Below, piece after piece: positions 2 to 49,839 of a stretch of DNA of 64,000 bases. The translations under genes and the position numbers were made by a program. Source of the stretch: Planctomycetota bacterium (GTDB lineage Bacteria; Planctomycetota; B15-G4; SIAN01); the NCBI GenBank assembly GCA_028289345.1, contig JANQQL010000005.1, positions 101,206 through 165,205 on the forward strand. Direction: 5' to 3'. The notes beneath the pieces were generated by a model. The model had not been told where the DNA came from. It made no database searches and saw nothing but the letters and a program-made list of their open reading frames with translations. Position 1 is the first letter of the stretch, and each line of letters begins with the position of its first letter.

Positions 2-679
2 TATCTGATCTCGTGCACGGCGCCACTTCCTGTCGACGTGGCCGAAGCCTTCTCGCAGCGCTTTCATGCGTCGATCTGCCAGCACTACGGATCCTCGGAA
101 ACTGGCGGCATCTCGTTGACTCACCACTCCGCGGCGGCCCGGCACTTCGACTCGGTCGGACGGGCCCTGCACGGCGTGCAGCTGAGCATCCTCGGTCCGA
201 ACGGAGAGTCGTTGCCCGTTGGGAGTCGCGGCGAGATCGTCATCGGAGGAGCAGCCACCGCGTCGGGCTACATCCGCGGGGTGACCAAGCACGACACGGA
301 CGGCTTCCGAAATGGCCGTTATTGGACCGGTGACGTGGGGACCCTTGACGCGGACGGATTCCTTCACCTCGACCGCACCCGTCCCGGCGTGGTGCATGTC
401 GGCGGTTGGAAGGTGTCCTTGGCAGAGGTCGCCCGTGTGATCGAATCACACCCATCGGTCCGCGAGAGTTCGGTCATCGACGTCGAGGACGCCCGCGGAT
501 TGGCGCGCATCGTCGCCGCTGTCACGCTGCAAGGTCCTGTCGAGGAAGCCGCGCTCATGGAGTTCTGCCGGTCGCGGCTGGCCGACTACAAACAACCGCG
601 ACGCATCCATATCTTGAAGAAGCTACCGCAGGCCGCGAACGGTGAGTTCGCCTGGAACGCCGAGCGTCCGCCCGCATGA
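2..679 (+). CDS. AMP-dependent synthetase/ligase (ANL adenylating enzyme), C-terminal part; 5' end is off-window
   Basis: Frame is open from nt 2. Motifs YGSSETGG, TGDVGTLDADGFLHLDR, GGWKVSLAEV and LADYKQPRR are typical of acyl-CoA/acyl-ACP ligases. Confidence 0.85.
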   Translation, partial: YLISCTAPLPVDVAEAFSQRFHASICQHYGSSETGGISLTHHSAAARHFDSVGRALHGVQLSILGPNGESLPVGSRGEIVIGGAATASGYIRGVTKHDTDGFRNGRYWTGDVGTLDADGFLHLDRTRPGVVHVGGWKVSLAEVARVIESHPSVRESSVIDVEDARGLARIVAAVTLQGPVEEAALMEFCRSRLADYKQPRRIHILKKLPQAANGEFAWNAERPPA

Positions 680-763
680 ATGGCTTGCTTGCCCGCATTC
701 TTTTTGAAGGCTTGCCCCGCTGCCGTGGCGAGGACCGCCACCGTTTGAGAGGTTGAAGCGCGC

Positions 764-1984
764 ATGAGACGAGTCGTCATCACCGGGATGGGTGCCGTCT
801 CGTGCCTCGGCAACTCGGTGGCCGAGGTTCTTGCCTCGTTGCGCGCTGGTCGCTCGGGCGTCGTGTACGACGAGTCCTACCGGAAGGCTGGACTGCGCTC
901 CCAAGTCTCGGGCCTCGTCGACATCGACTTCGACGCGCACCTCGACCGACGGGCCCGACGCCATATGTGTCCCGCAGCGGTCTACTCCTGGATCGCTATG
1001 GGCGAGGCCCTGCTCGATGCGGGACTTGCGCCCGATGCCATCTCTGATCCACGCATCGGCGTCATTGCCGCGGCCGGCGCCTCGTCGGCAGCGAGCCTGG
1101 TCGAAAGCGTGGACGCCTTGCGCCAACGCGGATTGCGTCGAGTCAATCCGTTCACCGCCCCGCGCACCATGGGCAGCAGCGTCGCCGCGAGCCTCGCAAC
1201 GTCCTACCGCATTCGGGGCCTCAGCTACGGAGTCACCTCGGCCTGCGCAACCAGCGCCCACTGCATCGGCGCGGCCATGGAGCAGGTCCAATGGGGCAAG
1301 CAGGACATCATCTTCGCCGGTGGTGGCGAAGAGATGGACTGGACCATCGCCTGCCGGTTCGATGCCATGGGCGCCCTCTCGACGCACTTCAACGAAACCC
1401 CCGCACAAGCGTCGCGACCCTACGATCGAGCTCGCGACGGCTTCGTCATGTCGGCGGGTTCGGGAATGGTCGTGGTCGAAGCCCTCGACCATGCCTTGGC
1501 ACGCGGGGCGCGGATCCATGCCGAGCTTTTGGGATACGGCGCGACGTCCGATGGCGACGACATGGTCGCTCCGTCCGGCGAGGGCGCCGTTCGATGCATG
1601 CGGCTGGCCCTCGAAACCGTCGACAAACCCATCGACTACGTGAACACCCACGGCACGAGCACCCCGCTTGGCGACCTCCGGGAGATCGAAGCGCTACGCA
1701 CAGTCTTCGGCGACAGTGTGCCGCCCTTCTCGTCAACCAAGTCGATGGGCGGTCACACCCTGGCGGCCGCCGGCGCGCTGGAGGCCATCCACTGCATGCT
1801 CATGCTTGAGCACAACTTTGTTGCGCCCTCGATCAACACGACCGATCCCGACCCCGAGCTCGACGGACTGCCGCTGGTCACGGAGCGCCGTGACGACGTC
1901 GGCCTGTCCACCATCATGACAAACAACTTCGGGTTCGGTGGGACCAACGCGTGCCTGGTGCTGCGGCGGTACCCAAGTCCATGA
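764..1984 (+). CDS. beta-ketoacyl-ACP synthase (KAS I/II type)
   Basis: 406 aa. VVITGMGAVSCLG N-terminus; active-site Cys in TSACATSAHCIG; His motifs NTHGTSTPLGD and KSMGGHTLAAAG; C-terminal NNFGFGGTNACLVL. Confidence 0.9.
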   Translation: MRRVVITGMGAVSCLGNSVAEVLASLRAGRSGVVYDESYRKAGLRSQVSGLVDIDFDAHLDRRARRHMCPAAVYSWIAMGEALLDAGLAPDAISDPRIGVIAAAGASSAASLVESVDALRQRGLRRVNPFTAPRTMGSSVAASLATSYRIRGLSYGVTSACATSAHCIGAAMEQVQWGKQDIIFAGGGEEMDWTIACRFDAMGALSTHFNETPAQASRPYDRARDGFVMSAGSGMVVVEALDHALARGARIHAELLGYGATSDGDDMVAPSGEGAVRCMRLALETVDKPIDYVNTHGTSTPLGDLREIEALRTVFGDSVPPFSSTKSMGGHTLAAAGALEAIHCMLMLEHNFVAPSINTTDPDPELDGLPLVTERRDDVGLSTIMTNNFGFGGTNACLVLRRYPSP

Positions 1985-2994
1985 CGAAACGGACCGTGAC
2001 GAAAGCGGAACTCCTCCTGCGCCGGTCGAACCCCGCCGATGCCTCGGCCATCGCGGACCTCATGACGACCACCTTCGGTGGCGACGACACTCAAAAGCTC
2101 GATGCCGCGTGGTGGCGTTGGAAATACGGTAGCAATCCTGCGGGATTCCAGGGACTTGTGGCCCAGGATGCCGACGGTCACCTCATCGGGCACTTCGGCG
2201 GCATCCCACTAAGCGTTCGCGCTGACAATGAGTTGTTCACGTTCGCGCAGAGTTGCGACACTTGCATCGACCCCGCGATGCGCCGCGGTCTGCGCAACCC
2301 GGGCCTGTTCGTGCGTCTGGCTCAGGCCTACACCTCCACGTACGGGATCCCCGGCGTCAACGATGTCATGTTCGGCTTCCCCAATCGGCGCGCCTATCGC
2401 ATCGGCAACCGCTACTCCGATTACTGGATGCTGCGTCAGCAGTGGCAGCTCGTGTCTGAAGGCGAGTCGTCGGAACCGACCGACACCAGCATCCAGATTC
2501 ACGAAGCGACGTCCCTCGACGAAGACGTGACCGCCCTTTGGGAGCGCCTGCTGCCCCGCTATCGCTGCTTGACGCGAAGGGACGCACGGTTCCTCCGCTG
2601 GCGGTTCCTGGACGCGCCCGACTCGCCGTACCGGATCACCCTCGCCCGAAGCAAGACCGACCACACGCTCCGAGCCTATGCCGTGCACCGCCTCGCGCGC
2701 CTCAACGACAATGACGTCGGCGTCCTGGTGGACTGGCTCTGCGACCCCACCGACCAAGCCGCGGCCAGGTCGCTGCAGGCAGCCGTGCGCGAGCGCTACA
2801 CGCGGCTCGGTCGCTCCATGGTCGTGTTCCTCTGCTCCACGTCCTCGCCCTGGTTCGGCGCGTTTCAGGACTGGGGATTCCGTGTCCGGCCATCGCACTA
2901 CGTGATGACGGCGCGTCCGTTCGTTCCGCAGCTCGAACCGCACTTCCTGCGCGAGCACTGGTACTACACGCTGGCCGACTTCGACATCCTCTGA
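1981..2994 (+). CDS. GNAT-superfamily-like acyltransferase (tentative), paralogue 1
   Basis: ATG at 1981 overlaps the KAS stop (ATGA). About 337 aa, clean long ORF. N-terminal segment LLLRRSNPADASAIADL...GHFGGIPL resembles GNAT folds. Shares length and a C-terminal motif (HWYYTLADFD vs NWHVTLADAG) with the next ORF. Confidence 0.5.
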   Translation: MTKRTVTKAELLLRRSNPADASAIADLMTTTFGGDDTQKLDAAWWRWKYGSNPAGFQGLVAQDADGHLIGHFGGIPLSVRADNELFTFAQSCDTCIDPAMRRGLRNPGLFVRLAQAYTSTYGIPGVNDVMFGFPNRRAYRIGNRYSDYWMLRQQWQLVSEGESSEPTDTSIQIHEATSLDEDVTALWERLLPRYRCLTRRDARFLRWRFLDAPDSPYRITLARSKTDHTLRAYAVHRLARLNDNDVGVLVDWLCDPTDQAAARSLQAAVRERYTRLGRSMVVFLCSTSSPWFGAFQDWGFRVRPSHYVMTARPFVPQLEPHFLREHWYYTLADFDIL

Positions 2995-3025
2995 TGGTTC
3001 CCGGAACAGAAACGCGAGCACGCTG

Positions 3026-4057
3026 ATGGGGCACTTCGAGCTTCGCACCGCGACGGACGAGGACGGGGCCGGCATCGCGGACGGGTTCGCGAGAGCCATC
3101 GGCAGCGACCCAAACCAGATCCGATCGCACGTCGTTTCTGCGTTGCACAACAACCCGCACGGCTCCTCGAGCGTCGTCGCCGCCGCCCCGGACGGACGCA
3201 TCATCGCGCACCTGGGCGTAACCCACGTTCCCATGCTGGTGAACGGCGAGCCGCTTCTCTTCGGCCGCTTCCACAGCTGCTTTGTGGACCCGGTCTATCG
3301 CACCGGCGGAGTGCACGGCCTCTTCAATGCCCTCGACAACTTGTTCCGGGAAGCTTTCGAGATCCGCGAGCACCTCGCCGCCGTGTTCGGCCAGTGGGAC
3401 GAGATGGACTGGTGGTACTTGCGACGCGCCCGCGGGCATGATGCCGTCGCCACGTCCATCGACCTACGTTGCCCGGCCAATCATCCCGTCCTCGAACTTG
3501 GCGGAGAAGGGATCGTCATCACCCAGGACGGCGAGGGCTCGGAGTCAGCCAACTTACTGAAGGTTGGCAACTGCGGAGTACGCCACGACGGCAAGCTCGA
3601 TGCCTGGCGAGCGGCAGCTCCCGGACGCTCCGATCACCTCTGGCAGGCCTGGCGCGCGGGCGAGCGAACCGGCATGGCCATCACCCGGGACATTGGCGGC
3701 GTTCGTCGGATCCTCGACTGGACCGTGGAGCCCGAGGATACAGAGTCGATCCGCGCGCTCCTGCACGCCTTGACCGTCGACACGGGTGTTCCGGTGCACA
3801 CGCGCTTCTGGACCTCGGACGTGCCGACCCTGCTGCTCTTTCAAGAAGCCGGCTTCCAAGTCGTGGCCGGCCCCGAAGTCTATCTCTCCGTCCGCCCGGT
3901 GCTGCCGCACCTCCACCAATTGTGGCTCTCGGAAAACTGGCACGTGACGCTGGCCGATGCGGGCTTGCACCCGTTGCCACGGCTCACCATCGGCGAATCG
4001 ATCGTGGTCCCGCCGTCGCCAGGCACGTGGGGTGGACGGCAGCACGACGCGGAATGA
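3026..4057 (+). CDS. GNAT-superfamily-like acyltransferase (tentative), paralogue 2
   Basis: 343 aa. FELRTATDEDGAGIADGF...IIAHLGVTHVPM parallels paralogue 1, in tandem and in the same orientation. Confidence 0.5.
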   Translation: MGHFELRTATDEDGAGIADGFARAIGSDPNQIRSHVVSALHNNPHGSSSVVAAAPDGRIIAHLGVTHVPMLVNGEPLLFGRFHSCFVDPVYRTGGVHGLFNALDNLFREAFEIREHLAAVFGQWDEMDWWYLRRARGHDAVATSIDLRCPANHPVLELGGEGIVITQDGEGSESANLLKVGNCGVRHDGKLDAWRAAAPGRSDHLWQAWRAGERTGMAITRDIGGVRRILDWTVEPEDTESIRALLHALTVDTGVPVHTRFWTSDVPTLLLFQEAGFQVVAGPEVYLSVRPVLPHLHQLWLSENWHVTLADAGLHPLPRLTIGESIVVPPSPGTWGGRQHDAE

Positions 4058-4178
4058 GGTCGCTCGCGGGATGAGAGTCCGCGATTCGCACATTCCGTTG
4101 AGGATAGAGATCGTCGGAATGACAAAAGCCAGGAAGGAACGTAGGCCATTCGCAGTAGGCCTACGTGACCGATCCAGG

Positions 4179-5435
4179 CTAGCCGCTCGGCGGGTCACTG
4201 CGCTCCGCGCCTTCCCCCGGTGCAGGCATCCTCTCGATCCGCCACTCGTGGTCGTGGAGTACGGCGCCGAGCTCCCTCTGTTTCGACACGGTGATGTGTA
4301 GGTTTTCGGTCGTGGGGATCTGGTGGTACCGGTGAAATCCGGTCCCATCCATGAGCGCGCACAGCACGACGAACTCTCCCGAGAGGACGCGGAGCTCGTG
4401 TAGGCATAGCGTCACAAAGCCCTCGGTCGGCAGATCGACCGGCACCTGATCCATCTCCGTGCTCGCGGAGACCAGAACAATCTTGTCGCCTCGAATCAAC
4501 GCGCAGCCGACCGAGATCTCCGTCGGCACGGCTCCGTTGCGGACGTGGATGCGGACCCCCACCGCCTCGCCCGGTTCGAAGCGGTGGCGCGGATCGCCGG
4601 TGTGCAGGTCGATGAGCGTCGCGGACACGATGTGCGGCAACTCGTGGTCGCAGTCAATCCGCATCATGTCGGGCGACCCGCCGTCGGTATCGTAGAGCTT
4701 GTTCTGCCAAGTCGAGTACTCGGTCGTCACCGAGATGGCATCGCCCTGCATCCGCAGCTGGCCTTGCTCGAGCCACATCGCGGTATCGCAAATCTGGCGC
4801 ACGTCGTAGAGTGAGTGCGAACAAAAGAACAGTGTCTTGCCGCGCTGCTTGTATTCGTTGATCCGCTCCGAGCACTTCCGTTGGAAGCGCATGTCGCCGA
4901 CCGCCAAGATCTCGTCGAGGATCAGGACGTCGGGATCCACCGAGACGGCAACCGCAAATCCGAGCCTGCAAATCATGCCCGACGAGTAGGTGCGGAGCGG
5001 CGCGTCGATGAACTCCTCGAGCTCGCTGAACTCGAGGACCTCGTCGAAGCGCCGCTTCATCTCCTTGCGCGGAATGCCGAGAATCGCGCCGTTCATGTAG
5101 ATGTTCTCCGCACCCGAAAAGTCCATCATGAACCCGGCGCCCAGTTCGAGAAGGCTCGCCACGCTGCCTCGGATCTCGTAGCTGCCAGTGTTCGGGAACG
5201 TCGTGCCGGTCAGAATCTTGAGCAGCGTCGACTTTCCGGCGCCATTGCCACCGACAAGGCCGACGCACTGTCCAGGCATGACGTCAAAGCTGATGCTCTG
5301 GAGCGCATGAACCTTCTTGTGGTGCGGTCGTTTGTTCCACGGCCAGAGTTCTTTGATCCGACCGAATGGGTTGCCATAGATGCGGTAGGTTTTCGACACA
5401 TCCCGGACGACGATCGCTGGCTGCTGGTGGGTCAT
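4179..5435 (-). CDS. ABC transporter ATP-binding protein, Wzt/TagH (polysaccharide/teichoic-acid export) type with C-terminal extension
   Basis: VRDVSKTYRIY...HALQSISFDV; Walker A GGNGAGKST; signature YSSGM; Walker B VLILDE. About 170-aa C-terminal domain as in Wzt. Start set at MTHQQP (ATG 5435); the ORF-track extension to 5603 is not protein-like. Confidence 0.85.
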   Translation of the reverse strand: MTHQQPAIVVRDVSKTYRIYGNPFGRIKELWPWNKRPHHKKVHALQSISFDVMPGQCVGLVGGNGAGKSTLLKILTGTTFPNTGSYEIRGSVASLLELGAGFMMDFSGAENIYMNGAILGIPRKEMKRRFDEVLEFSELEEFIDAPLRTYSSGMICRLGFAVAVSVDPDVLILDEILAVGDMRFQRKCSERINEYKQRGKTLFFCSHSLYDVRQICDTAMWLEQGQLRMQGDAISVTTEYSTWQNKLYDTDGGSPDMMRIDCDHELPHIVSATLIDLHTGDPRHRFEPGEAVGVRIHVRNGAVPTEISVGCALIRGDKIVLVSASTEMDQVPVDLPTEGFVTLCLHELRVLSGEFVVLCALMDGTGFHRYHQIPTTENLHITVSKQRELGAVLHDHEWRIERMPAPGEGAERSDPPSG

Positions 5436-5589
5436 CCGAGGCCTGAGAACTTGCGCTTGTGGCTCATGAAGAATGTGTCGCCGACGGTAGAAAGGAACGC
5501 CGCAAACATCGACGCGAAGCGGCGTTGGAGGGTGAATCGTACCCCTCAGGGAGTTTCCCGTCGAGGTCGCGATGCTGACTTGAGGGAGA

Positions 5590-5725
5590 CCACTCCCCTC
5601 CAACTCGTCCTCGCAAGGTCAGGTCATTGACTACCTCCGCGGAAGGAATCAGGTTCTCAAGGAGCAGCTCAACAGCAAACGGCTCCGACTGACCGACCGT
5701 CGCGCCCGACTCGACTCGGTCGTCC
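5590..5725 (+). mobile_element. Fragment of IS family B (5' part of the transposase gene only)
   Basis: Translation gives TPLQLVLA..VIDYLRGRNQVLKEQLNSKRLRLTDRRARL. It aligns at nucleotide level with 49866-50020 of the near-complete copy ([43 protein letters not shown]), with an internal deletion and a frame change. Confidence 0.5.
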
Positions 5726-5872
5726 CCCACTCGCGTTCTTTCCCGTCAGCGGCACGAGGCAGGTTCGCGCGTCGGCTAGACTATGCCACGTCTCCGGACA
5801 CGGAACGTGGCGACAGACGAGCGGATTGTCGCTATATCTGGAAGAATCCCCATAACTCCGCAAGATATCCCG

Positions 5873-6370
5873 ATGGCTCAGATAAAGAAGAAGTTCTGCA
5901 TGCTCGGTGCATTCGGGGTCGGGAAGACCAGCCTCGTCGCGCAGTTCGTCCACAGCATCTTCTCGGAAAAGTACATGACGACTGTCGGCGTCAAGTTGGA
6001 TCGCAAGGATGTATGCATCGAGGGGCGGGACGTGTGCCTGATGATCTGGGACTTGCACGGTGAGGACGAGTTCATGTCCGTGAAGGATAGCTACCTCCGT
6101 GGATCCTCGGCGATGCTGTTCGTGTCGGACGGCACACGCCCCGAGACGGTGCGAGCGGCACTCGATATCCGGAGAAGAACAAGGGAAGCATTCCCCGTTC
6201 CCGCCCTATCCCTCGTGAACAAGAACGACCTCACCGACGAGTGGAGAGTGGCCGGAGCAGACCTTGATGTGCTCGAACGAGAAGGCCTCGACCCGCGTAC
6301 CACCAGCGCGAAAACCGGAGAGAACGTGGAGGGGGCATTCCGCGAGCTGGCGCGACGCACCCTCGCCTAG
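5873..6370 (+). CDS. small Ras/Rab-like GTPase
   Basis: 165 aa. G1 GAFGVGKTS, G3 WDLHGED, G4 NKND, G5 SAKTG. Start set at MAQIKKK (ATG 5873). Confidence 0.8.
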   Translation: MAQIKKKFCMLGAFGVGKTSLVAQFVHSIFSEKYMTTVGVKLDRKDVCIEGRDVCLMIWDLHGEDEFMSVKDSYLRGSSAMLFVSDGTRPETVRAALDIRRRTREAFPVPALSLVNKNDLTDEWRVAGADLDVLEREGLDPRTTSAKTGENVEGAFRELARRTLA

Positions 6371-6387
6371 GTTCGGGGGACATACCG

Positions 6388-7506
6388 ATGAACCGGGAAC
6401 AGCAGGTCACACTCTTGCGCGAAGATGTAGACGCCTGGAACTCATGGCGTCAGTCAATCGTCGACCCTCCTCTCGATCTTCGCGGTGCTCAGTTGCGTGG
6501 CACCCGACTGGCGGGGGCGAACCTCTGCCGTACTGTGTTGAGCCGCGCTGATCTCGCTGGCTGCGACCTATCCATGTGCGATCTCCGGAGTGCAACGCTC
6601 GGGTCAGCAGATCTCAGCGAAGCCAACCTGGACCACGCGATTCTCGACGCAGCGGTACTGGACGATGCCGTTGCGCGAGAGACCAACTTCAATCGCTCGA
6701 GTTTGAGAGGATGCAGTCTGGACCGTGCCGATCTGACCAACGCGGTTCTCCAGGGAGCGGACCTGACGGACGCGAGCTTTCGGGATTCGCAGCTGATCGG
6801 GGCGGACTTGGCGGAGACCTTGTTTCGTAGGACGACACTGTCTGGCGCCGACGTGACAAACGCGGCTCTGATGGGGACAGTCTTCGCTTGGACCGACCTG
6901 AGCGAGGTCGTCGGACTGGAAGCTTGTGTTCACATCGGTGCATCGTCAGCGGACCAAAAGTCGCTCGCGTGCCTTGGAGACGAGCATGAGGGCTTTCTGG
7001 CCGGAATGGGAGTTCCATTCGGCAGCCGCGCAGCGGCGACAGCTCCGCCCCTTTCGAGCCCGATGGCTTCGTGCTTCATCAGTCACGCGAGCGAGGACCT
7101 GAGCTTCGCCCGCAAGCTGCGCGACGATCTGCATCGGAACGGACTCCGCGCTTGGCTCGCCGCGGACGAGCTCCAGGTCGGCGATCGCCTGCGCGGGTCG
7201 ATCGAACGCTCGATCTGGCAGCACGACTACGTCTTGCTCGTCGTGTCAGCCAATTCGATCAAGAGCTCGTGGGTGGCCCACGAAGTCGAGATCGTCGTCA
7301 GAAAGGAACGTGAAACGAACATGAGTTCCTTACTTCCCATCCGACTCGACGAGACGTGTGAACTCGATGGATCCCACTGGAAGGACAGCGCCTTGAACGA
7401 CCGCCTAATGTGCGACTTTGTCGGATGGCAAGACGAAAACAAGTATCGCGGAGCGTTGAAGAGGATTCTCGAACGCATGGTCAAGATTCCGCCGTCTGCG
7501 CCGTAG
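6388..7506 (+). CDS. pentapeptide-repeat protein with C-terminal TIR domain
   Basis: aa 30-170 are A(D/N)LxG-type pentapeptide repeats (nt ~6475-6897). aa ~228-355 form a TIR domain (CFISHASEDLSFARKL..., LLVVSANSIKSSWVAHEVE with the catalytic-type Glu at nt 7282-7284). Lies 17 nt downstream of the GTPase gene. Confidence 0.85.
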   Translation: MNREQQVTLLREDVDAWNSWRQSIVDPPLDLRGAQLRGTRLAGANLCRTVLSRADLAGCDLSMCDLRSATLGSADLSEANLDHAILDAAVLDDAVARETNFNRSSLRGCSLDRADLTNAVLQGADLTDASFRDSQLIGADLAETLFRRTTLSGADVTNAALMGTVFAWTDLSEVVGLEACVHIGASSADQKSLACLGDEHEGFLAGMGVPFGSRAAATAPPLSSPMASCFISHASEDLSFARKLRDDLHRNGLRAWLAADELQVGDRLRGSIERSIWQHDYVLLVVSANSIKSSWVAHEVEIVVRKERETNMSSLLPIRLDETCELDGSHWKDSALNDRLMCDFVGWQDENKYRGALKRILERMVKIPPSAP

Positions 7507-7532
7507 GGCCGATCCCACGAGCGTTCCTCCCG

Positions 7533-8411
7533 TCACCTCTTCCGCTTGATCTCGACGAGGCACGCCTGCAGCCGGGGCGCGATGAGTTCGAACGGCGTCG
7601 TGTCGCCGTCGAACTCGCGCATCCTCGGTCCCAGGTCGGCGTGAATCGACTCGAGCGTCTCCATGAAGTCGCGTTGCGTGCTTGAGGGGGGAACCCCATG
7701 GGTATAGGTGACGAGATGCGCCAGAGGACCACTCGCAACGAGCACCGTCATCCCGCCGTAGTCGAAGCGATCCAGCTGGTCGGACTCATCGCGGCCCATC
7801 GTGTCGCGGGCGAACTCTCGAATCACGGTGAGCATCGCCGATACGAGATCCGGATCCTTCGCCGCATCGGAATCGGTGCGTCCTGAATGGGCAAGGAGCA
7901 GTCCGGTTTCCGCGTGGACGAGCATGACCAGGTCGACGCGAAAGACCAACGAGTGCATTCGTGCGACCTCGGCGAACGGCTTGCCCGTCCGCCAAGCCTC
8001 GATCCACCATCGTACTCCTCGGAGCGTCATCGCACCGCGCAGCGCATGAACAAAGCTCTCAGCCGCGGTCTCTAGGGATCGCGAAAACGACTCGCGAATC
8101 GCCGGCCCGAGAACGGGAAACAGATAGCTAGCGACGGCCTTTGGATCGTTTTTGACCGACGTGCCCAGCGCTCTCTCCACGACCGGCGCAAACGCGGATT
8201 CGATGCGAGAATCAGTCTTCGACAGACGGTGGATCAATTCAGGAAGCCGTTGCTCCACGACGGTGAGCACGTGTTGTTCCGCATCCGACTCCGTCTCCTG
8301 CCATCGAGCTTGCGGATTCGCTGAGGCGGCGAGAGCCGCTTGCACGTCGCGAAGAGAATCTTCAAGTGCAGCAATCCTCGTCAAGAGCGCACGCTCACTG
8401 TCACTTTGCAT
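7533..8411 (-). CDS. coiled-coil protein with C-terminal Roadblock/LC7(MglB)-like region (tentative)
   Basis: Start at MQSDSE (ATG 8411, GAGGGGGA 7 nt upstream). The C-terminal LVMLVHAETGLLLAHSG...VSAMLTVIREFARDTM...GGMTVLVASGPLAHLV pattern resembles Roadblock/LC7 folds. Assigned by eye only. Confidence 0.5.
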   Translation of the reverse strand: MQSDSERALLTRIAALEDSLRDVQAALAASANPQARWQETESDAEQHVLTVVEQRLPELIHRLSKTDSRIESAFAPVVERALGTSVKNDPKAVASYLFPVLGPAIRESFSRSLETAAESFVHALRGAMTLRGVRWWIEAWRTGKPFAEVARMHSLVFRVDLVMLVHAETGLLLAHSGRTDSDAAKDPDLVSAMLTVIREFARDTMGRDESDQLDRFDYGGMTVLVASGPLAHLVTYTHGVPPSSTQRDFMETLESIHADLGPRMREFDGDTTPFELIAPRLQACLVEIKRKR

Positions 8412-8839: not shown

Positions 8840-9196
8840 ATGTTTGTATTCAAGAACCTTCCTCTGTTGGTCTTTGCTGCATTTGCACTGTGTCTCGTCC
8901 CGGTTTCGGACATCGAGGCAGGATCCCCGGCACCGGCTCCGATTTCCGCATCGCCCGCAGGAGGGACGATCGAGCTCGGCCAAACGATTTGTGTCTCGAA
9001 CCATACAGGGACCCCCCTACCGATCACTTTCAAACTCAATGGTGTGCCTGCATCGAGCGGCGTCATCCCGCCCTTTGGAGGGACGGTTTGCGCACCGGTT
9101 CCGATGCTTCCGGGGCTCGTCGGGGCAAAGGTAACGGTATGCGTCGATGGCAAGCAAACCGGCTTCTGCTGGGAGATTGTCAGACCCGCACAGTAA
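8840..9196 (+). CDS. small secreted protein, unknown function
   Basis: 118 aa. N-terminal signal-peptide-like LPLLVFAAFALCLVPVSDIEA; four Cys. Confidence 0.45.
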   Translation: MFVFKNLPLLVFAAFALCLVPVSDIEAGSPAPAPISASPAGGTIELGQTICVSNHTGTPLPITFKLNGVPASSGVIPPFGGTVCAPVPMLPGLVGAKVTVCVDGKQTGFCWEIVRPAQ

Positions 9197-9333
9197 GCGA
9201 TCGTTGCACGCGTCGTCACCACGCACGAAGCGCGTGCTGTGGTGGCGGCGCATGTCGTCTTTGGACCACGTCGCTGCGAAGATTTTCTGAACCGATTCTC
9301 CGGTCGAGCTGGATTCCCTGGTCGGAGCCTCTC

Positions 9334-10626
9334 ATGAACGACCCGACCTCGCCCCTTCGACTCGACGACCTCTTGGAGCACTCTCAGTTTGTGCGCAGGC
9401 TGGCGCGAGGGCTGGCGCAGGACGAGCACGCGGCGGACGACATTGCGCAGCAGACCTGGTTGTCGGCGCTGGAGCGGCCTCCGTCGAGTTCGCGCAACCT
9501 GCGATCCTGGCTCGCAGTCGTCGCGCGCAATGCGGCGGGGAAGTCCTGGCGATCCGAGCAGAGTCGACGACGGCGGGAAGAGCTCGCTGCGCGATCGGAG
9601 GCGGTAACGCACGAGGGGCTCGCCGAGCGCGCCACCTTGCAGCAGCGAATCGGGCAGCTGGTCTTGGAACTCGACGCGACGTATCGCACCCCGTTGCTGC
9701 TGCGTTTCTATGAGGATCGACGGCCTCGGCAGATCGCCGCGGAACTCGACCTCCCGGTGGAGACGGTGCGCACGCGGATCAAGCGCGGTCTCGAACGCGT
9801 CCGTCAGCGACTCGACCGCGAACAAGGTGGACGCAAGGCGTGGCTCGCGCTGCTGGCCCCGACACCCCATCACAAATCTCTCGCGGCAAACGGAAGCTCC
9901 CCATCGAACTCCTGGGTCGGTGCGCCCTTCGTTGTTTCGGGTGGCCTGCTCCTCGTCGCGGTGTTCCCGTTTGTTCATTGGTTCGGAGGCTCCGAAGGCA
10001 CCGAGTCCGCCGCGAACCCTTCGGGAATGATTTCAAGCGCGTCGCTCCGCGAACGGCGAGACTCACAGTTCGTCGCATCGCCGGTGATCGTCGAGAGGAA
10101 CGCCGATGCTCGATCCGAGCTTCCGTCCGATCCGATCAAAGCGACGCCAGCCTCGAAGCTCCTCCCGCTCGAAGGCCGCATCGTCGATCCGGACGGCCAG
10201 CCGCGCGAAGGGATCCAGGTCGCCTGGATCCTCGATCAGTTCGACCGCGACCTCGGCATGGGCACGCGAACCGAAGTCGACCAACCGACCACTCGCAGCA
10301 ATGCCGACGGCTGGTTCGTGCTGCCCCGGATCGAGGATCCCAGCGCGGTGATCCAAGTGCGCGACGCCGACTGGCTGTCCCTCGGGCGCAGCGTCGAGAA
10401 GAGAAGAGGCAATGAGCATCAAGTCTGGGTCGTGACCCGTCGTCGTCAGCTCACGGGCCGGATCGAAGACCAGGCCGGTCATCCGATCGAGGGAGCCAAG
10501 GTCCATGTCATCCCCGACTCGGCTCGCTTCCAGGACTTTGATCGCTCACCATCACGGTTAGATCATTGGATCTCCAATGTTCGCATCAGGTTCAAACGGT
10601 TTCCACTAAGCGTGTCGAGGATCTGA
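9334..10626 (+). CDS. ECF sigma-70 factor fused to a transmembrane segment and carboxypeptidase-regulatory-like repeats
   Basis: Start at MNDPTS (ATG 9334). Region 2 (AADDIAQQTWLSAL) and region 4 (YRTPLLLRFYEDRRPRQIAAELDLPVETVRTRIKRGLERVR), then TM APFVVSGGLLLVAVFPFV, then LEGRIVDPDGQPREGIQV and LTGRIEDQAGHPIEGAKVHV. Confidence 0.8.
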   Translation: MNDPTSPLRLDDLLEHSQFVRRLARGLAQDEHAADDIAQQTWLSALERPPSSSRNLRSWLAVVARNAAGKSWRSEQSRRRREELAARSEAVTHEGLAERATLQQRIGQLVLELDATYRTPLLLRFYEDRRPRQIAAELDLPVETVRTRIKRGLERVRQRLDREQGGRKAWLALLAPTPHHKSLAANGSSPSNSWVGAPFVVSGGLLLVAVFPFVHWFGGSEGTESAANPSGMISSASLRERRDSQFVASPVIVERNADARSELPSDPIKATPASKLLPLEGRIVDPDGQPREGIQVAWILDQFDRDLGMGTRTEVDQPTTRSNADGWFVLPRIEDPSAVIQVRDADWLSLGRSVEKRRGNEHQVWVVTRRRQLTGRIEDQAGHPIEGAKVHVIPDSARFQDFDRSPSRLDHWISNVRIRFKRFPLSVSRI

Positions 10627-17508: not shown

Positions 17509-18915
17509 CTACAAGAATATTCCGCGACGCAGACAGCTCTCGAGACAGAAAGCCAGGACGTTGGTCAAGGGTTCTCCGGAATCCAAGAGTGAACGGATCG
17601 CCTTAGCGGTCGCCGGAATCGCTTTGAGATCACCGTGCTCCAGCAGCGTGTCCGAAGCTTGACGCGCCTTCTTCAGGACAACATTCGCGTCGAGCCGGGT
17701 GTACGCGACACCGAAGATCGCCGGCTCGAAGTTCCGTTCCTCCACGAAAGGTTCGAATAGCTCGACTCGAGCGATATCGGCTCGTTCGAGCCCGAGCTCT
17801 TCAAAGAAGCCCCGGTAAGTAGTTGCGGAAGCATCAAACTCCTGGTCGTAACGATCGCTCAAGCTGAGCCCCTCGTTCATCGCAACATGCCAATGACCTT
17901 GAGTTTCATCCGAGTTCGCAATATTGGCTGAGCGCTGACTCAAGATCAGATGCGGCTCTCCGCCACGTGGTGCAAGCAACAACAGATCGAAACCGAAAGA
18001 CCTCAGAAGGCCCGCGTACTCGGTAAGGCTCCGAGAATAGTCAGGTTCTATGGCCCCTCGAGCGCGCAGCCGTCGATAGAGGCGCTTTGCAAACTGTGAG
18101 GTGAAATAGTCCGTGAGGTAGACGACCACGTTGAGCAGGTGCTCTTCCGATTCTTCAGTTCGTGATCGACGGAACGCCGACACGCCAAACTTCTTTCCGT
18201 TGAACACTTGCCACCCAGAGCTTCGTTTTCGATCAACCAGTTCGCGGACCTCGGCCTTCGCCGCGAAGACGTCCTCTTTCGTCACGCCAAGCTTGGGCCC
18301 ATTGCTTCCGAGCCGCACGTATTCCTCCAAATCATCGAACTCCAGGGCGTCCAGGCTCGTATCGACGATCTGCTCTTCGCCTGCGTGGGTAAAGGTAACC
18401 TGATCAAGTCGATAGCTGTGATCGGAGTGATCCAACACGGCGATGTCAGAAACCGGCATCGCTTCGCTGCCGCTACTGGGTCGCCCCCTAGTCATCTCAG
18501 CGAAACGGGTCTTTTTCTCGAAGCGGTCCTCCAACGCCGCGGAGATTTGACCCGCGACACCGTTCGCGCCGGAGACCCGAAGATCCGCATAGCCCAGATC
18601 CGCGACTTCGGGTGGGAGCGAGGCGTCGTCGACCTTCACCACGATCATCCGGTTCTCGTCGCGGCTAGTCGCGTATCGGAACTCTCGCATGGTCCATTCC
18701 TTCTCGAGATATGATTTCGAGATCAAGGCCACGACAACGATTCCCTCGGCGCCATAGATCTCAGCTAGTTTCGGCGGTAGCGGCAAGCCAAGGAGCTTGT
18801 GCATTCGATTGGGGCCGTAGAAGCAACTGAAACCATCGCGTCTCAACCTCGTAGCAATTGCATCAGCGATCGAGACGTCTTCCGAGGCGTACGAGATCGC
18901 GACATCGTAATCCAT
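17509..18915 (-). CDS. TIR domain protein with C-terminal Nudix-like module
   Basis: aa 1-135 are TIR (YDVAISYASEDVSIADAI..., ALISKSYLEKEWTMREF). aa ~305-445 (nt 17581-18003): LILSQRSANIANSDETQGHWHVAMNEGL...YRGFFEELGL, a degenerate Nudix-box pattern. Confidence 0.85.
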   Translation of the reverse strand: MDYDVAISYASEDVSIADAIATRLRRDGFSCFYGPNRMHKLLGLPLPPKLAEIYGAEGIVVVALISKSYLEKEWTMREFRYATSRDENRMIVVKVDDASLPPEVADLGYADLRVSGANGVAGQISAALEDRFEKKTRFAEMTRGRPSSGSEAMPVSDIAVLDHSDHSYRLDQVTFTHAGEEQIVDTSLDALEFDDLEEYVRLGSNGPKLGVTKEDVFAAKAEVRELVDRKRSSGWQVFNGKKFGVSAFRRSRTEESEEHLLNVVVYLTDYFTSQFAKRLYRRLRARGAIEPDYSRSLTEYAGLLRSFGFDLLLLAPRGGEPHLILSQRSANIANSDETQGHWHVAMNEGLSLSDRYDQEFDASATTYRGFFEELGLERADIARVELFEPFVEERNFEPAIFGVAYTRLDANVVLKKARQASDTLLEHGDLKAIPATAKAIRSLLDSGEPLTNVLAFCLESCLRRGIFL

Positions 18916-21188: not shown

Positions 21189-21614
21189 TCATGAATCTTC
21201 CCTCTTGCTCGATGTCAATGGAGGGGCTTGAGGCGTCCCCCACGGGAATCCACCACGATCCCGCTTTGGCATCAAACTCAGCCATCCCGCTTGAACGCCC
21301 AGGTCGGTAGTACATGAGTACTGAATCGAGGATTTGTCGGAGTTCTCGAAACCTGTGCCCCGCACCCATCCGCCTGGAACAAGCTCATCGAGCCCGCTCC
21401 ACGAGGACGCAGTAAGATCTATCGTTTCTGTCCATTGTCGGTACCCCCGCGCGGAGACCCGACACCAGTACTTGTCCACGGGAAGCGACTCAAACCCGAC
21501 CCGCCCCTGAGCATCTGACCCTCGGGACGACATTTTCGGGATGCACAGGTAGTGTCGGTGGGTCGGATTTGGCCAATCAGCTTGGTAGCTCTGTGATCCT
21601 CCGTGGACCAGCAC
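21189..21614 (-). CDS. ORF with carboxypeptidase-regulatory-like motif; overlaps the TM-TIR ORF in another frame
   Basis: SDAQGRVGFESLPVDKYWCRVSARGYRQWTETIDL. 196-nt overlap with 21419-22576 suggests a frameshifted continuation or a separate small gene. Confidence 0.3.
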   Translation of the reverse strand: MLVHGGSQSYQADWPNPTHRHYLCIPKMSSRGSDAQGRVGFESLPVDKYWCRVSARGYRQWTETIDLTASSWSGLDELVPGGWVRGTGFENSDKSSIQYSCTTDLGVQAGWLSLMPKRDRGGFPWGTPQAPPLTSSKREDS

Positions 21615-22576
21615 ACGCCACGAAAGTCCGGAATGAAGAGCTTTCCCACCAGGTTAGTCAGACCGCCCCTCGGCCCGTAGTTGCTCCGCCACTCCTGGAT
21701 CACTTCCATATCCACGAGTCGAATCGGTAGCAGGACGTCAGGATCGGTGATCACGCAGCGTGCCTCGAGTCGCACCCAGCGGCTCCTCAAACTTGCCTGC
21801 GACATCACTAAAACGACCCTGCGACTCGAAGCAATGGCCTTGATCAGCTGCTCGGTGACCCCCTTGCCGTACTTTAGATCCTTCGCATCCCACCACACTC
21901 GCAGGCCGACACCATCCAAGAATCTGCAAAGGGACATCGCGAACGGAAAGTCGGCACTCGAATAGGAAATAAAGCAATCGTATCGATCAGATGGAGCAAG
22001 GAGTCTCCAGGGACTTGCTACGACCACGTATCCGATCAAGTAGACTGCCAGGGCACCGACGAAAGCCCACCACGTCACGTGGGAGAGCGGATCTGCAATG
22101 CCAGAGTAGACCGCGCAAAGGAAACCGAGAACGACAGCTGTACAGACTGCGAGAAGTCGGGTGTAGCACTTGGCGGTAGCGTTCGGTCGCAGGATGTGCC
22201 ATGCGACAGCGATCCGCTGTAGCAAATCGGGGGCAAGCTTGGGCATCACAGCCCAGTACGTTCCGCACAGAATCAAGTACATCGCACAGAACCACAGCAC
22301 AACTGTGAGGTCTCTGCCACTGTAAGCCGCGATCGTGGACGCGCCCACTGCCCCACTTCCGCTGAGCACGGCCAGCACGTCAACGGCATCAACCAAACGA
22401 GAACCGGATCCCCAGGGGAGATCTTTCTGGCGCCATGCCCAAACATCGAATAGGCAGATGAGGGAGAGCAAGAGCGATACCAGAGAACGAAACAATGCTA
22501 GGTCGAATACGGCGCCGACTGCGGCAACGAGTCCAAGGACTCCGGTCGCGAGATAGAACCACCAGTGGACATTCAT
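21419..22576 (-). CDS. polytopic membrane protein with C-terminal TIR domain
   Basis: About 6 hydrophobic helices in aa 1-190. TIR at aa ~199-300 (nt ~21677-21982): YDCFISYSSADFPFAMSL..., VLVMSQASLRSRWVRLEA. Confidence 0.8.
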   Translation of the reverse strand: MNVHWWFYLATGVLGLVAAVGAVFDLALFRSLVSLLLSLICLFDVWAWRQKDLPWGSGSRLVDAVDVLAVLSGSGAVGASTIAAYSGRDLTVVLWFCAMYLILCGTYWAVMPKLAPDLLQRIAVAWHILRPNATAKCYTRLLAVCTAVVLGFLCAVYSGIADPLSHVTWWAFVGALAVYLIGYVVVASPWRLLAPSDRYDCFISYSSADFPFAMSLCRFLDGVGLRVWWDAKDLKYGKGVTEQLIKAIASSRRVVLVMSQASLRSRWVRLEARCVITDPDVLLPIRLVDMEVIQEWRSNYGPRGGLTNLVGKLFIPDFRGVCWSTEDHRATKLIGQIRPTDTTCASRKCRPEGQMLRGGSGLSRFPWTSTGVGSPRGGTDNGQKR

Positions 22577-27733: not shown

Positions 27734-29122
27734 ATGAAGGTCGACGTGTTCCTGAGCTACGCGAGAGAAGACAGGACGAAAGCCGAGAGACTCGTGCACC
27801 GCCTGGAGTCCCGAGAACTCTCCGTCTGGTGGGACCCAGATGTTGCACCCGGTAAAGACTGGCCTGAATCGATTGAACAGGCGTTGAACTCCGCGACCTG
27901 CGTGGTCGTGCTTTGGTCGCAGATCTCCGTGAAAGCTCGCTTCGTCAGGGAGGAAGCGGAAAGTGCGAAGAATCGAGGTGTCCTCCTCCCGGTGTTGATC
28001 GACACCGTCGAAATCGAGAACTTGCCACTGGGCTACAGGACCATCGAGTCGGCGGACCTCAGTCGCTGGCGTGGCGATCCGTACGATCACGAGTATTCGC
28101 TTCTATGTGATCGAATCTCGTCCATCCTCAGCGGGGAGGAAGTCAGCTCCGCGAGGGACGAAGCGAGAAGGGCCCGCCGGCGACGACAATCCGTTCGAAG
28201 CCTCGCGGCGCTACTACTGATTGTTGCGGTCGGTGTCCTCCTGTACACCGAGCCCTGGGTTTCCAGTGCTCCACCCACGATCTCAGATTTCGCCGTGGAG
28301 TCGACTTCGATCCCCTGGAACAGCTCGACTGCGCTGGTCTGGAAGTCCGACGACGCGGATCGCGTCGAGCTCACCGCAAATGGCTCGGTGGTCGGAGAAC
28401 TGGATCCGGAGGGACGTCATCCCGTAAGTCCAGGAGAGACAACAACGTATCGGATTCGCGCCATGCGGGGCAACGTCCGGGGAACCGACGTGAGCGAACT
28501 CATCGTCCGGGTTGGCTCTCCGGATCTGTCCGGGACCTGGAAGAGCTCTGAAGGCGGGTACTACGTGGTCACCTCAACACGGAGTGGATACAGGTGGGAG
28601 GCGTACACAATTGAGAACGGGAAGGCGATGTTCCACAACTACGGGGCGTACGCCACGGCGACGGTCGAGTACATGTCTTCTGCCGTCCCAAGCGTTGAGT
28701 CGAGGGCGACCTTCGCAGCGATTCCCCCGAAAATGCTGCACCCTCCCACCATCTCCTGGTCTCATGGGGAGAAGTTCACGAAGGTTCAGGAGGGAGTCGC
28801 CTACATTGCTCATTCGCCATTGACGGTGTACGGAAAGTGGGTGAATGAGCAAGGACGCCAGTTCTCCATCGACCAAGTGCCCGAGGGGTTCTCTTGGTCC
28901 GTGCCGGTTCACTTCGAATCGGGAGATGTGACCGCGGATGGCGGCCGGCTGTCTGTCCAGACAACACCCGCCAGCGAGTTCGGCTCGTGGATTTCTGCCG
29001 GCACTTTGACCGGAACAACGATCGGGGACTCCGGGTCGGTTCAGCCCACTCAGATCGCCTGGAACAACGGCGTGACGTTTCAGGCGGTCGATTCGATCCC
29101 GTTTCAGCTGCATGGCAACTGA
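27734..29122 (+). CDS. N-terminal TIR domain, single TM, large extracytoplasmic C-terminal region
   Basis: KVDVFLSYAREDRTKAERL..., VVVLWSQISVKARFVREEAESA. TM SLAALLLIVAVGVLLYT. About 290 aa of beta-rich C-terminal sequence. Confidence 0.85.
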   Translation: MKVDVFLSYAREDRTKAERLVHRLESRELSVWWDPDVAPGKDWPESIEQALNSATCVVVLWSQISVKARFVREEAESAKNRGVLLPVLIDTVEIENLPLGYRTIESADLSRWRGDPYDHEYSLLCDRISSILSGEEVSSARDEARRARRRRQSVRSLAALLLIVAVGVLLYTEPWVSSAPPTISDFAVESTSIPWNSSTALVWKSDDADRVELTANGSVVGELDPEGRHPVSPGETTTYRIRAMRGNVRGTDVSELIVRVGSPDLSGTWKSSEGGYYVVTSTRSGYRWEAYTIENGKAMFHNYGAYATATVEYMSSAVPSVESRATFAAIPPKMLHPPTISWSHGEKFTKVQEGVAYIAHSPLTVYGKWVNEQGRQFSIDQVPEGFSWSVPVHFESGDVTADGGRLSVQTTPASEFGSWISAGTLTGTTIGDSGSVQPTQIAWNNGVTFQAVDSIPFQLHGN

Positions 29123-49772: not shown

Positions 49773-49839
49773 CGAAGTATCCGAAAACTGCATCGCACTG
49801 CCAAGACACGACTTACGACCCTGTCAAACCAGAGACACC

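Follow-up and report, generated by a model that had tools for sequence, protein, structure and literature searches.

Can a Ras-like small GTPase act as the switch for a TIR-domain NAD+ hydrolase in bacteria? The question is raised by a locus from a Planctomycetota bacterium in which a small GTPase gene is followed by a gene for a pentapeptide-repeat TIR protein (PPR-TIR) and, convergent to both, an ORF with a Roadblock-like domain. An earlier note on this DNA had read these genes as a GTPase molecular switch gating a TIR NADase, a pairing that its author did not know from characterized defense systems. Analysis of the window (the whole 64-kb stretch of DNA) points to a different answer. The locus is probably a rearranged, incomplete Group 1 Rup module lying beside an autonomous PPR-TIR gene, and a dedicated GTPase-TIR system is probably not what is encoded here.

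The gene structure described earlier stands in full, including the coordinates, the convergent third ORF, the 17 nt between the GTPase (rup) stop and the PPR-TIR start, both on the forward strand, and the 26 nt between the PPR-TIR stop and that of the convergent ORF (Table 1). Because the gap is only 17 nt and terminator prediction gave none at the junction, rup and the PPR-TIR gene are likely co-transcribed; this carries no implication of control by Rup. The PPR-TIR gene is preceded by its own ribosome-binding site (GGGGGA), and GAGGGGGA lies immediately before the ATG of the convergent ORF.

Table 1. Features of the locus, in window coordinates.
Feature	Location	Strand	Basis or remark
IS3-family orfA remnant	5617..5760	+	48 aa, GQVIDYLRGRNQVLKEQLNSKRLRLTDRRARL...
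Rup GTPase gene	ATG 5873 to stop 6370	+	165 aa, frame intact
PPR-TIR gene	ATG 6388 to stop 7506	+	372 aa
PPR-TIR, two-helix N-cap	residues 3-23	+	AF2 model
PPR-TIR, 29-repeat beta-helix	residues 29-173; 6472-6906	+	repeat register
PPR-TIR, conserved linker	between beta-helix and TIR domain	+	
PPR-TIR, TIR domain	residues 228-365; 7069-7482	+	TIR_2
PPR-TIR, catalytic-type Glu E299	7282-7284	+	AbTIR alignment
Convergent ORF (Unc homologue)	stop 7533-7535, ATG 8411	-	7533-8411
Unc homologue, N-terminal helical part	residues 1-145; 7977..8411	-	alignment with 34-35 homologues
Unc homologue, Roadblock/longin-like domain	residues 146-292; 7536..7976	-	AF2, Foldseek

The GTPase matches Pfam Ras (3e-26) and Roc (6e-19), and the alignment bears out the full set of G motifs that had been read from its sequence (G1 GAFGVGKTS, G3 WDLHGED, G4 NKND, G5 SAK). 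An alignment with 35 homologues confirms the start codon; the window sequence shares all columns that are invariant among the resulting 36 sequences, and the gene has no frameshift and no stop. The nearest solved structures are eukaryotic Rabs (Rab4B, 4.8e-20), and over 7,800 homologues carrying the annotation "Rab family GTPase" share 50-61% identity with the protein. At G3, Glu replaces the catalytic Gln (WDLHGE versus WDTAGQ of Rab4B), and the consensus of the 36-sequence alignment at this motif is WDLxGEDEF. The missing G3 Gln has been described for the Group 1 Rup GTPases (PMC4316618). Like the members of that group, the window protein is a single-domain Ras-superfamily GTPase with G1-G5 motifs that lacks the DxxGQ glutamine, its 165 aa fall within the range of 150-240 aa, and it groups with the GTPases of the four-gene Rup neighborhood. 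On the strength of its sequence we assign it to the Group 1 Rup GTPases of Wuichet and Søgaard-Andersen (2014, PMC4316618).

The Group 1 Rup system was predicted from genomes (Wuichet and Søgaard-Andersen 2014, Genome Biol Evol, PMC4316618), and its canonical cassette runs in the order coiled-coil protein, membrane/OmpA protein "Unc", rup, and signaling output (PMC4316618). The module that had seemed an unfamiliar pairing is a truncated and rearranged form of this system, known since 2014, and hence not new. In the loci sampled here, Unc lies directly upstream of rup and in the same orientation in 42 of 48, and upstream of the GTPase in every closest-homologue locus with enough upstream DNA; an HMM made from five coiled-coil proteins detected the coiled-coil gene in 42 Rup loci. 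Just downstream of rup, 50 of 61 loci have an ORF bearing an N-terminal domain of about 200 aa, here called RupOutN, which is common to 33 of the 35 Rup outputs. These outputs comprise adenylate/guanylate cyclases, histidine kinases, HD, GGDEF and PP2C proteins, and a sigma-54 activator (by Pfam, 15 cyclase, 11 HATPase_c, 3 HD, 2 GGDEF, 2-3 PP2C/SpoIIE, and 1 sigma-54). The nearest homologues of the window GTPase (57-61% identity) have Unc upstream and/or RupOutN outputs downstream. In the remaining 11 of the 61 loci no RupOutN output follows rup; among nine ORFs from seven such loci, seven match unrelated housekeeping-type families (those found after rup include polyphosphate kinase, LexA, amidohydrolase, and MFS) and two gave no match. 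A Rup module without an adjacent output also occurs at locus L168.

Measured against this cassette, rup is the sole intact Rup component of the window. Neither the coiled-coil gene (no match at E<=1) nor a RupOutN output (no window ORF at E<=10, PPR-TIR included) occurs anywhere in the 64 kb, and no Unc with a transmembrane helix and periplasmic/OmpA part lies upstream of rup and co-oriented with it.

What the window does contain is the convergent ORF, which by homology is a truncated version of the Rup-associated Unc protein. It is 41-44% identical to the Unc proteins of canonical cassettes, the identity being 41% for the gene that immediately precedes rup at a related Planctomycetota locus (L001). 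Canonical Unc proteins consist of a cytoplasmic helical part and a Roadblock/longin-like domain, one transmembrane helix, a periplasmic part, and often OmpA, and the best 150 representatives are 427-1508 aa in length. The stop codon of the window homologue falls just short of the point where its relatives run on into the transmembrane helix, so that the periplasmic and OmpA parts are absent, and an HMM of the C-terminal part of Unc had no match anywhere in the 64-kb window. The gene is inverted relative to rup and lies 1.1 kb downstream, with the PPR-TIR gene standing between the two. Of 78 highly conserved columns it departs from 26, more than any other of the 35 sequences. It has kept an open frame and a strong ribosome-binding site, and in both rup and the Unc fragment GC3 exceeds GC2, as is typical of coding sequence. 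The fragment also stops cleanly at the edge of a domain, and its state as a whole could be the result of selection for a soluble regulator.

The N-terminal part of the Unc fragment contains a conserved region (FPVLGPAIR... W-R..RTG) and is predicted to form long helices (AF2, pLDDT 58-71). The C-terminal half (residues 146-292) is modeled with much higher confidence (pLDDT 86-98) as alpha-beta-beta-alpha-beta-beta-beta-alpha, a Roadblock/longin fold. Foldseek searches of the PDB with this domain returned only Roadblock/longin proteins (TRAPP Bet5, LAMTOR/Ragulator, dynein LC7, Sec22b, MglB [6izw_C, 3t12_B], and Mon1-Ccz1) at E values of 5e-4 to 5e-3, the top 50 matches having probabilities of 0.93-1.00 and target-normalized TM scores of 0.27-0.67. 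The earlier note had seen a Roadblock-like C-terminal third; all of its domain calls proved correct, this one at the level of fold only and over the C-terminal half. HMMs recovered Ras, Pentapeptide, and TIR_2, and did not recover Robl_LC7 (PF03259), which matched none of 35 family members at E<=1. The ORF itself had no match in Pfam, NCBIfam, or PADLOC, and scanning it with its 34 homologues against Pfam and NCBIfam to E<=1 yielded OmpA alone, in three long homologues. Structure prediction thus suggests that the Unc family carries a cryptic Roadblock/longin-like domain. The 2014 survey reported no MglB coupling for Rup (PMC4316618), and our literature search beyond that survey found no experimental work on Rup and no Roadblock domain in Rup partners. 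The link between GTPase and Roadblock-like protein is supported, and the earlier proposal that the two are partners gains strongly from the immediate upstream, co-oriented position of the family at those 42 of 48 homologous loci.

Lacking the G3 Gln, Rup would depend on a residue contributed in trans. Its GAP or GEF would be the Roadblock/longin platform of Unc, a role modeled on those of MglB, MfpD, and Ragulator, and GTP-bound Rup would then bind the N-terminal domain of the output. The Rup and Unc pair of the window may have kept its cycle and its signaling, with partners encoded elsewhere; it may also be in decay.

The PPR-TIR protein matches Pfam Pentapeptide (3.5e-31) and TIR_2 (7.3e-23), with bit scores above the gathering thresholds for TIR_2 (81.8 versus 28) and TIR (33.6 versus 21.3). 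The architecture and catalytic-type Glu noted earlier are confirmed, and the repeat count becomes 29 in place of about 28, in a single unbroken register over residues of about 29-173. The AF2 model (pLDDT 86.9) consists of a two-helix cap, a beta-helix, and a TIR domain. E299, in the sequence SSWVAHEVE, aligns with the W-x-x-x-E Glu of the NAD+ hydrolase AbTIR (8g83/7uwg, 1.4e-10 to 2.6e-10), which we take to be the AbTIR catalytic residue, and conservation at this position reaches at least 90% in a family alignment of 34 sequences. PADLOC matched the TIR part only (PDC-S66, ThsB, SAVED-TIR, Argonaute-TIR, RT-TIR) and gave no match to the GTPase or the third ORF; the PDC-S66 match (8e-19) is to a candidate, not a validated, system. 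Tandem paralogues, 2-4 per locus, occur in 14 of 80 PPR-TIR loci, and these arrays fit a diversifying immune-type sensor. Three further TIR proteins are encoded in the window. A literature search found no account of PPR-TIR proteins, activity tests included.

Judged by its relatives, the PPR-TIR gene appears to belong to a widespread stand-alone family. No TIR gene was found near the closest relatives of the GTPase (0 of 80 loci), and no GTPase, Unc, coiled-coil, or output-domain gene near the closest relatives of PPR-TIR (0 of 82 loci, even at E<=0.01), in samples that, with a few look-ups, represent families of thousands of members. The window is the one place where the pairing was found, and missing synteny in other genomes is what the earlier note had itself named as grounds for refuting its inference. 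Since the PPR-TIR family stands alone and no other member sampled lies beside such a GTPase, and PPR-TIR itself lacks RupOutN, the proposed GTPase switch gating a TIR NADase is unsupported. With the pairing a singleton and comparative genomics giving no support for coupling, the locus is weak as a candidate defense system. In our preferred reading PPR-TIR would work alone, its 29-repeat beta-helix serving as a sensing or assembly surface and its TIR domain, once triggered, cleaving or cyclizing NAD+ through E299.

The main alternative, which we consider unlikely, is that the Rup module has captured the TIR protein as a new effector. GTP-bound Rup would bind the PPR-TIR beta-helix and license or restrain TIR oligomerization and NAD+ cleavage, with the soluble Unc fragment as GAP or GEF. 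This idea keeps some probability because of the precedent of MfpB and MfpA, in which MfpB-GTP binds the pentapeptide protein MfpA and the Roadblock protein MfpD is the GAP (PMC3575795, PMC9769811). Rup outputs are naturally interchangeable, spanning at least six enzyme classes, and PPR-TIR sits exactly in the output slot, on the same strand as an intact rup, after a short gap with no predicted terminator. The Unc fragment has kept its Roadblock-like domain, and pentapeptide proteins abut the Rup module in three other loci (L001, L084, and L127). Against capture stand the singleton status of the pairing, the lack in PPR-TIR of the domain that nearly all real Rup outputs use, and an N-terminal cap that PPR-TIR shares with family members that have no GTPase neighbors. 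MfpB belongs with the conservon GTPases of the MglA family and not with Rup (PMC4316618), and among the family members sampled none is more divergent than the Unc fragment. Pentapeptide genes near Rup are scarce as well, with 1 instance in 80 metagenome loci, and a lineage-specific Rup-pentapeptide link was considered and rejected: the proteins in the related Planctomycetota loci L001 and L084 show generic repeat similarity only and have no TIR domain, and because these loci are syntenic they amount to effectively one observation. Several points already named also count against the rearranged-module reading that we prefer, namely the exact placement of PPR-TIR in the output slot, the intact rup, the open frame, strong ribosome-binding site, and confident Roadblock-like fold of the Unc fragment, the mfp precedent, the pentapeptide proteins of L001 and L084, and the limited sample of 80 plus 82 loci and a few look-ups among thousands. 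Were capture true, a Ras-like switch would for the first time have been shown to govern a bacterial TIR NADase, and it would be a natural switch over an NAD+-depleting immune effector.

The most likely origin of the adjacency of rup and PPR-TIR is a rearrangement associated with IS elements, at the margin of a variable region. The IS fragment reported just upstream of rup is real, and lies at about 5617-5760 and not at 5590-5725. In tblastn, its translation (48 aa) finds similar orfA segments in IS3-like copies at 49924-50004 (70% identity), 37415-37507, and 49001-49093, and the ORFs adjacent to these copies (37497-38069 and 50170-50922) carry rve_3 and HTH_21. The remnant occupies the slot that Unc has in canonical Rup loci, and at this point ORF GC3 falls from about 0.80 to 0.58-0.74. 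Derivation of the window gene order from the order seen at L084 through a single inversion was considered and dropped, as the orientation of the PPR gene and the loss of the kinase could not both be reproduced; the sole residual synteny with that order is an ECF-sigma/CarboxypepD_reg gene (40% identity) head-to-head with Unc.

Taken further, an IS-mediated disruption could have left rup and the Unc fragment as non-functional leftovers that are being lost, with PPR-TIR alone under selection. Three of the four canonical Rup components are missing or truncated, the IS3 remnant lies where Unc is expected, and the divergence of the Unc fragment at conserved columns points the same way. We nevertheless give this reading rather little credence, given a rup gene with all invariant columns and no frameshift or stop, coding-type GC3 in both ORFs, an Unc fragment with an intact frame, ribosome-binding site, and confident predicted fold, and the occurrence elsewhere of output-less Rup modules such as L168. 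That the TIR domain is a protein-protein adaptor or scaffold and PPR-TIR no immune effector, as the lack of activity reports for the family and PADLOC matches confined to the TIR domain (the PDC-S66 candidate among them) would allow, is highly improbable in view of the conserved Glu, the NAD+ hydrolases (AbTIR and a TIR domain protein) that are the nearest solved relatives, and tandem paralogue arrays typical of conflict genes.

Group 1 Rup is among the closest known systems. The window GTPase resembles the cassette GTPases (50-61% identity) in being small and Rab/Ras-like and in lacking the G3 Gln, and the convergent ORF is homologous (41-44% identity) to the Unc that precedes rup. The window differs in that Unc is inverted and cut before its transmembrane, periplasmic, and OmpA parts, the coiled-coil gene and an output with the shared N-terminal domain are missing, and PPR-TIR and the IS3 remnant occupy the output and Unc slots.

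The PPR-TIR protein resembles the bacterial TIR NADases (AbTIR, ThsB, PDC-S66) in its TIR_2 domain, conserved catalytic-type Glu, and AbTIR-type relatives, and departs from them in its N-terminal pentapeptide beta-helix and in having no ThsA-like or other known partner nearby. It does not fit Thoeris: the ThsB_TIR score is 19 bits against a cut-off of 21.2, the PADLOC ThsB match covers the TIR domain only, and the neighbors are the GTPase and the Unc fragment, with no adjacent ThsA (SIR2/TM-SLOG). Roc-COR (AP-GTPase) systems likewise combine Ras-like GTPases with TIR-type effectors and repeat sensors (Kaur et al. 2020, PMC7159879; 2021, PMC8195603). There, however, the GTPase is fused to COR and effector-associated domains (EADs) in large proteins (PMC7159879, PMC8195603), whereas the window Rup is free-standing, with 165 aa and no COR or EAD, and its Pfam Roc match reflects the shared G domain only.

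The mycobacterial mfp operon (MfpE-D-C-B-A) is an experimentally established combination of a small GTPase with a pentapeptide effector and a Roadblock GAP (Tao et al. 2013, PMC3575795; Huang et al. 2022, PMC9769811). It shares with the window a small GTPase, a Roadblock-fold regulator, and a pentapeptide gene directly after that of the GTPase (here PPR-TIR, after 17 nt). The differences are that MfpB and CvnD belong to the MglA family and the window GTPase is Rup/Rab-like; that MfpA, whose target is DNA gyrase, lacks a TIR domain; and that the Roadblock-like domain of the window sits in a larger protein with no Pfam Robl_LC7 match. Of the other conservon components, none of Robl_LC7, DUF742 (MfpC), and a CvnA-type kinase gave a match among the neighbors scanned.

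In MglA/MglB, Rag-Ragulator, TRAPP, and Mon1-Ccz1, as in Rup cassettes, a Roadblock/longin domain is encoded alongside a small Ras-superfamily GTPase, on which it presumably acts. These platforms have no detectable sequence similarity to the Unc domain, and Unc homologues, unlike them, carry it fused between a long helical N-terminal region and transmembrane/OmpA parts. The present analysis tells more about the poorly studied Group 1 Rup cassette than about defense. The Unc membrane partner family comprises about 6,900 clusters at 50% identity and has no Pfam model, and the outputs, often adenylate/guanylate cyclases, are joined through a shared N-terminal domain that likewise has no existing model. 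The predicted Roadblock/longin-like domain of Unc would group Rup systems by design with MglA-MglB, the conservons, and Rag-Ragulator.

The gene layout described in the earlier note, a small GTPase gene followed closely by one for a pentapeptide-repeat protein with a TIR domain (PPR-TIR) and then by a convergent third ORF, agrees with the ORF map and the sequence. No terminator-like site was found between the GTPase and PPR-TIR genes. The likely ATG start of the third ORF has GAGGGGGA just before it; a longer reading from GTG-8636 adds an Arg/Cys-rich extension that aligns with none of the homologues.

Features of the window considered in this analysis
Feature	Coordinates	Strand	Remarks
AMP-binding enzyme, ketoacyl synthase and Wzt-like ABC ATPase genes	38-5603		ORF GC3 ~0.78-0.82
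IS3 remnant	5617-5760		translation matches orfA part of in-window IS3-like copies
GTPase (rup) ORF	5873-6370	+	165 aa; from ORF map and sequence
PPR-TIR ORF	6388-7506	+	372 aa; 17-nt gap after GTPase ORF
Third ORF	end 7533, likely start ATG 8411	-	convergent; 26 nt beyond PPR-TIR ORF
Roadblock/longin-like domain of Unc homologue (predicted)	7536-7976	-	within third ORF
ECF sigma factor-CarboxypepD_reg fusion	8890-10626	+	real start near 9334
TIR_2 protein	17509-18915	-
TIR_2 protein	21419-22576	-
TIR_2 protein	27734-29122	+
IS3-like elements/fragments	49690-50922; 37415-38069; 48926-49315		orfA-like ORFs and ORFs with HTH_21, rve_3
ECF sigma factor gene overlapping Ser/Thr kinase-TPR gene	53260-56707	+	kinase-TPR product 951 aa

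The window GTPase matches the Pfam models Ras (3e-26) and Roc, its nearest solved structures are eukaryotic Rabs, and its G3 motif reads WDLHGE, with Glu replacing Gln. Group 1 Rup GTPases are Rab/Ras-like proteins without the G3 Gln, co-encoded with three further proteins: one is a coiled-coil protein, one (“Unc”) is uncharacterised and combines a conserved domain with a TM helix and OmpA, and one is a signalling output with a conserved N-terminal region (Wuichet & Søgaard-Andersen 2014, PMC4316618). The window GTPase and the third ORF are components of such a Group 1 Rup system, known since 2014; literature searches found no experimental follow-up of these systems. Our own sampling of related loci recovers the published cassette: a coiled-coil gene is present in 42 Rup loci, and a gene with a shared N-terminal domain of ~200 amino acids, here called RupOutN, lies directly downstream of rup in 50/61. 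RupOutN has a consensus that includes a QQKA motif and is without a Pfam model (e.g., L095:2472-3650, L102:4229-5395, and L001:6508-8016 in related loci). The catalytic parts of 35 outputs are adenylate/guanylate cyclases (15), histidine-kinase ATPases (11), HD (3), GGDEF (2), PP2C/SpoIIE (2-3), and a sigma-54 activator (1). The frequency of cyclases is a useful by-product, the 2014 survey having stressed GGDEF/EAL and kinase outputs instead.

Searches of Pfam, NCBIfam, and PADLOC with the third ORF gave no match, and neither Pfam nor NCBIfam has a model for the Unc family as a whole (related loci L085-L164, L001, L084, L167, and L168). Word-indexed homologues of the third ORF number 54, and an Unc profile search returned 6,898 representatives at 50% identity, the best 150 of which span 427-1508 aa, several with a C-terminal OmpA domain. 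In the family alignment, the N-terminal region is helical and leads into a conserved globular domain; a hydrophobic helix comes next and then a periplasmic part. An AF2 model of the third ORF predicts the globular domain at residues 146-292 (pLDDT 86-98), with an alpha-beta-beta-alpha-beta-beta-beta-alpha topology, for which Foldseek against the PDB found solely Roadblock/longin proteins (Bet5, LAMTOR subunits, dynein LC7, Sec22b, MglB, and Mon1-Ccz1). The likeness to Roadblock is one of fold only, because no family member matches Pfam Robl_LC7. At that predicted level the model bears out the earlier guess of a Roadblock-like neighbour, and the proposed link to the GTPase is supported by metagenome loci: 80 were sampled for the GTPase's nearest relatives, and of the 48 in which upstream DNA extends to 1.5 kb or more, 42 have an Unc gene immediately upstream of and co-oriented with the GTPase gene. 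Additional look-ups gave the same arrangement, and the gene of the closest homologue of the GTPase (58% identity, Planctomycetota) is directly preceded by one for a 474-aa third-ORF homologue (41% identity).

The PPR-TIR protein matches Pfam Pentapeptide (3.5e-31) and TIR_2 (7.3e-23). It has 29 pentapeptide repeats in a single register, and its confident model (pLDDT 86.9) begins with a two-helix cap, continues as a beta-helix and a linker, and ends in the TIR domain. E299 aligns with the W-x-x-x-E Glu of the NAD+ hydrolase AbTIR, the catalytic residue of that enzyme. Homologues of the same architecture (30-40% identity) are common across several phyla, among them Acidobacteriota, Chloroflexota, Cyanobacteria, and Chlorobiota, and the window protein, which carries the N-terminal cap usual for them, is by sequence comparison a member of a stand-alone family. 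The most frequent neighbour of a PPR-TIR gene is another one, with 2-4 paralogues arrayed in tandem in 14 of the 80 genome loci (L037, L048, L026, L017, and ten others). Genes for diversifying sensors or effectors typically show this pattern.

The idea that the GTPase gates the TIR domain is not supported by this comparison. The earlier note had named a lack of synteny between the homologues as refuting it, and TIR domains occur in 0/80 Rup loci, while neither a GTPase gene nor an Unc, coiled-coil, or RupOutN gene was found near PPR-TIR in the 80 genome loci (flanks up to 6 kb) and two more look-ups, even at E<=0.01. We think it probable, and the likeliest reading, that here the remnant of a rearranged Rup module adjoins a PPR-TIR gene that acts autonomously. 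It is unlikely that the Rup switch instead captured PPR-TIR as a new output, an alternative to which the exact position at the output slot, closely spaced behind rup, and the natural interchangeability of Rup outputs would lend themselves. The mycobacterial mfp operon offers a possible analogy, in which the small GTPase MfpB binds its effector, the pentapeptide-repeat protein MfpA, and has the Roadblock protein MfpD as its GAP (PMC3575795, PMC9769811). A pentapeptide protein also adjoins the Rup module in two Planctomycetota loci (L001 and L084); these are syntenic, however, and count as one observation, and their protein is without TIR, having only generic repeats in common with the window protein. 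An HMM search of the window ORFs found no RupOutN domain in PPR-TIR. Moreover, 11/61 Rup loci have no RupOutN output downstream of rup, and among nine ORFs scanned in seven such loci, seven match unrelated housekeeping-type families and two have no match. Position at the output slot is therefore weak functional evidence by itself.

The signs of a rearranged remnant lie in the rest of the cassette. The window rup is intact. In contrast to the canonical arrangement, Unc is convergent rather than upstream and lacks the TM and periplasmic part: its product ends right before the hydrophobic-helix position of the alignment, and no trace of the remainder was found anywhere in the window. It differs at 26/78 highly conserved columns, the most among 35 sequences. 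The 64-kb window contains no coiled-coil gene and no RupOutN-bearing gene. The canonical Unc position is occupied by an IS3 remnant; the IS fragment noticed earlier upstream of the GTPase is genuine, and ORFs neighbouring the in-window IS3-like copies carry rve_3. In a metagenome Rup locus (L108:5998-11164), rup (+) is inverted relative to Unc and a PAS-kinase-receiver output (-), so within-cassette inversions are also found outside the window.

Because GC3 falls near 5600, to 0.58-0.74 for most ORFs beyond 5.7 kb, the three genes appear to lie at the margin of a region that bears IS elements and differs in composition; this region contains the IS3 copies and three further TIR proteins. These TIR_2-domain proteins, all within 23 kb of the locus, have the TIR domain N-terminal in two cases and at residues 202-288 in one; their other parts have no Pfam match, and PADLOC matches are limited to the TIR part. 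Strong PADLOC “PD-T4-6” matches of the kinase-TPR gene are limited to its generic kinase domain. The ECF sigma factor fusion is head-to-head with the Unc fragment, and a similar ECF sigma gene (40% identity over the sigma part) flanks the L084 Rup locus in the same relative orientation, which may be residual synteny.

Also useful as a by-product is the prediction that the Unc family, which is large and unmodelled, has a cryptic Roadblock/longin-like domain. The 2014 survey reported no Rup GTPase coupled to MglB (PMC4316618), and the modelled Unc fold may therefore be a counterpart of MglA-MglB and Rag-Ragulator that has gone unrecognised.
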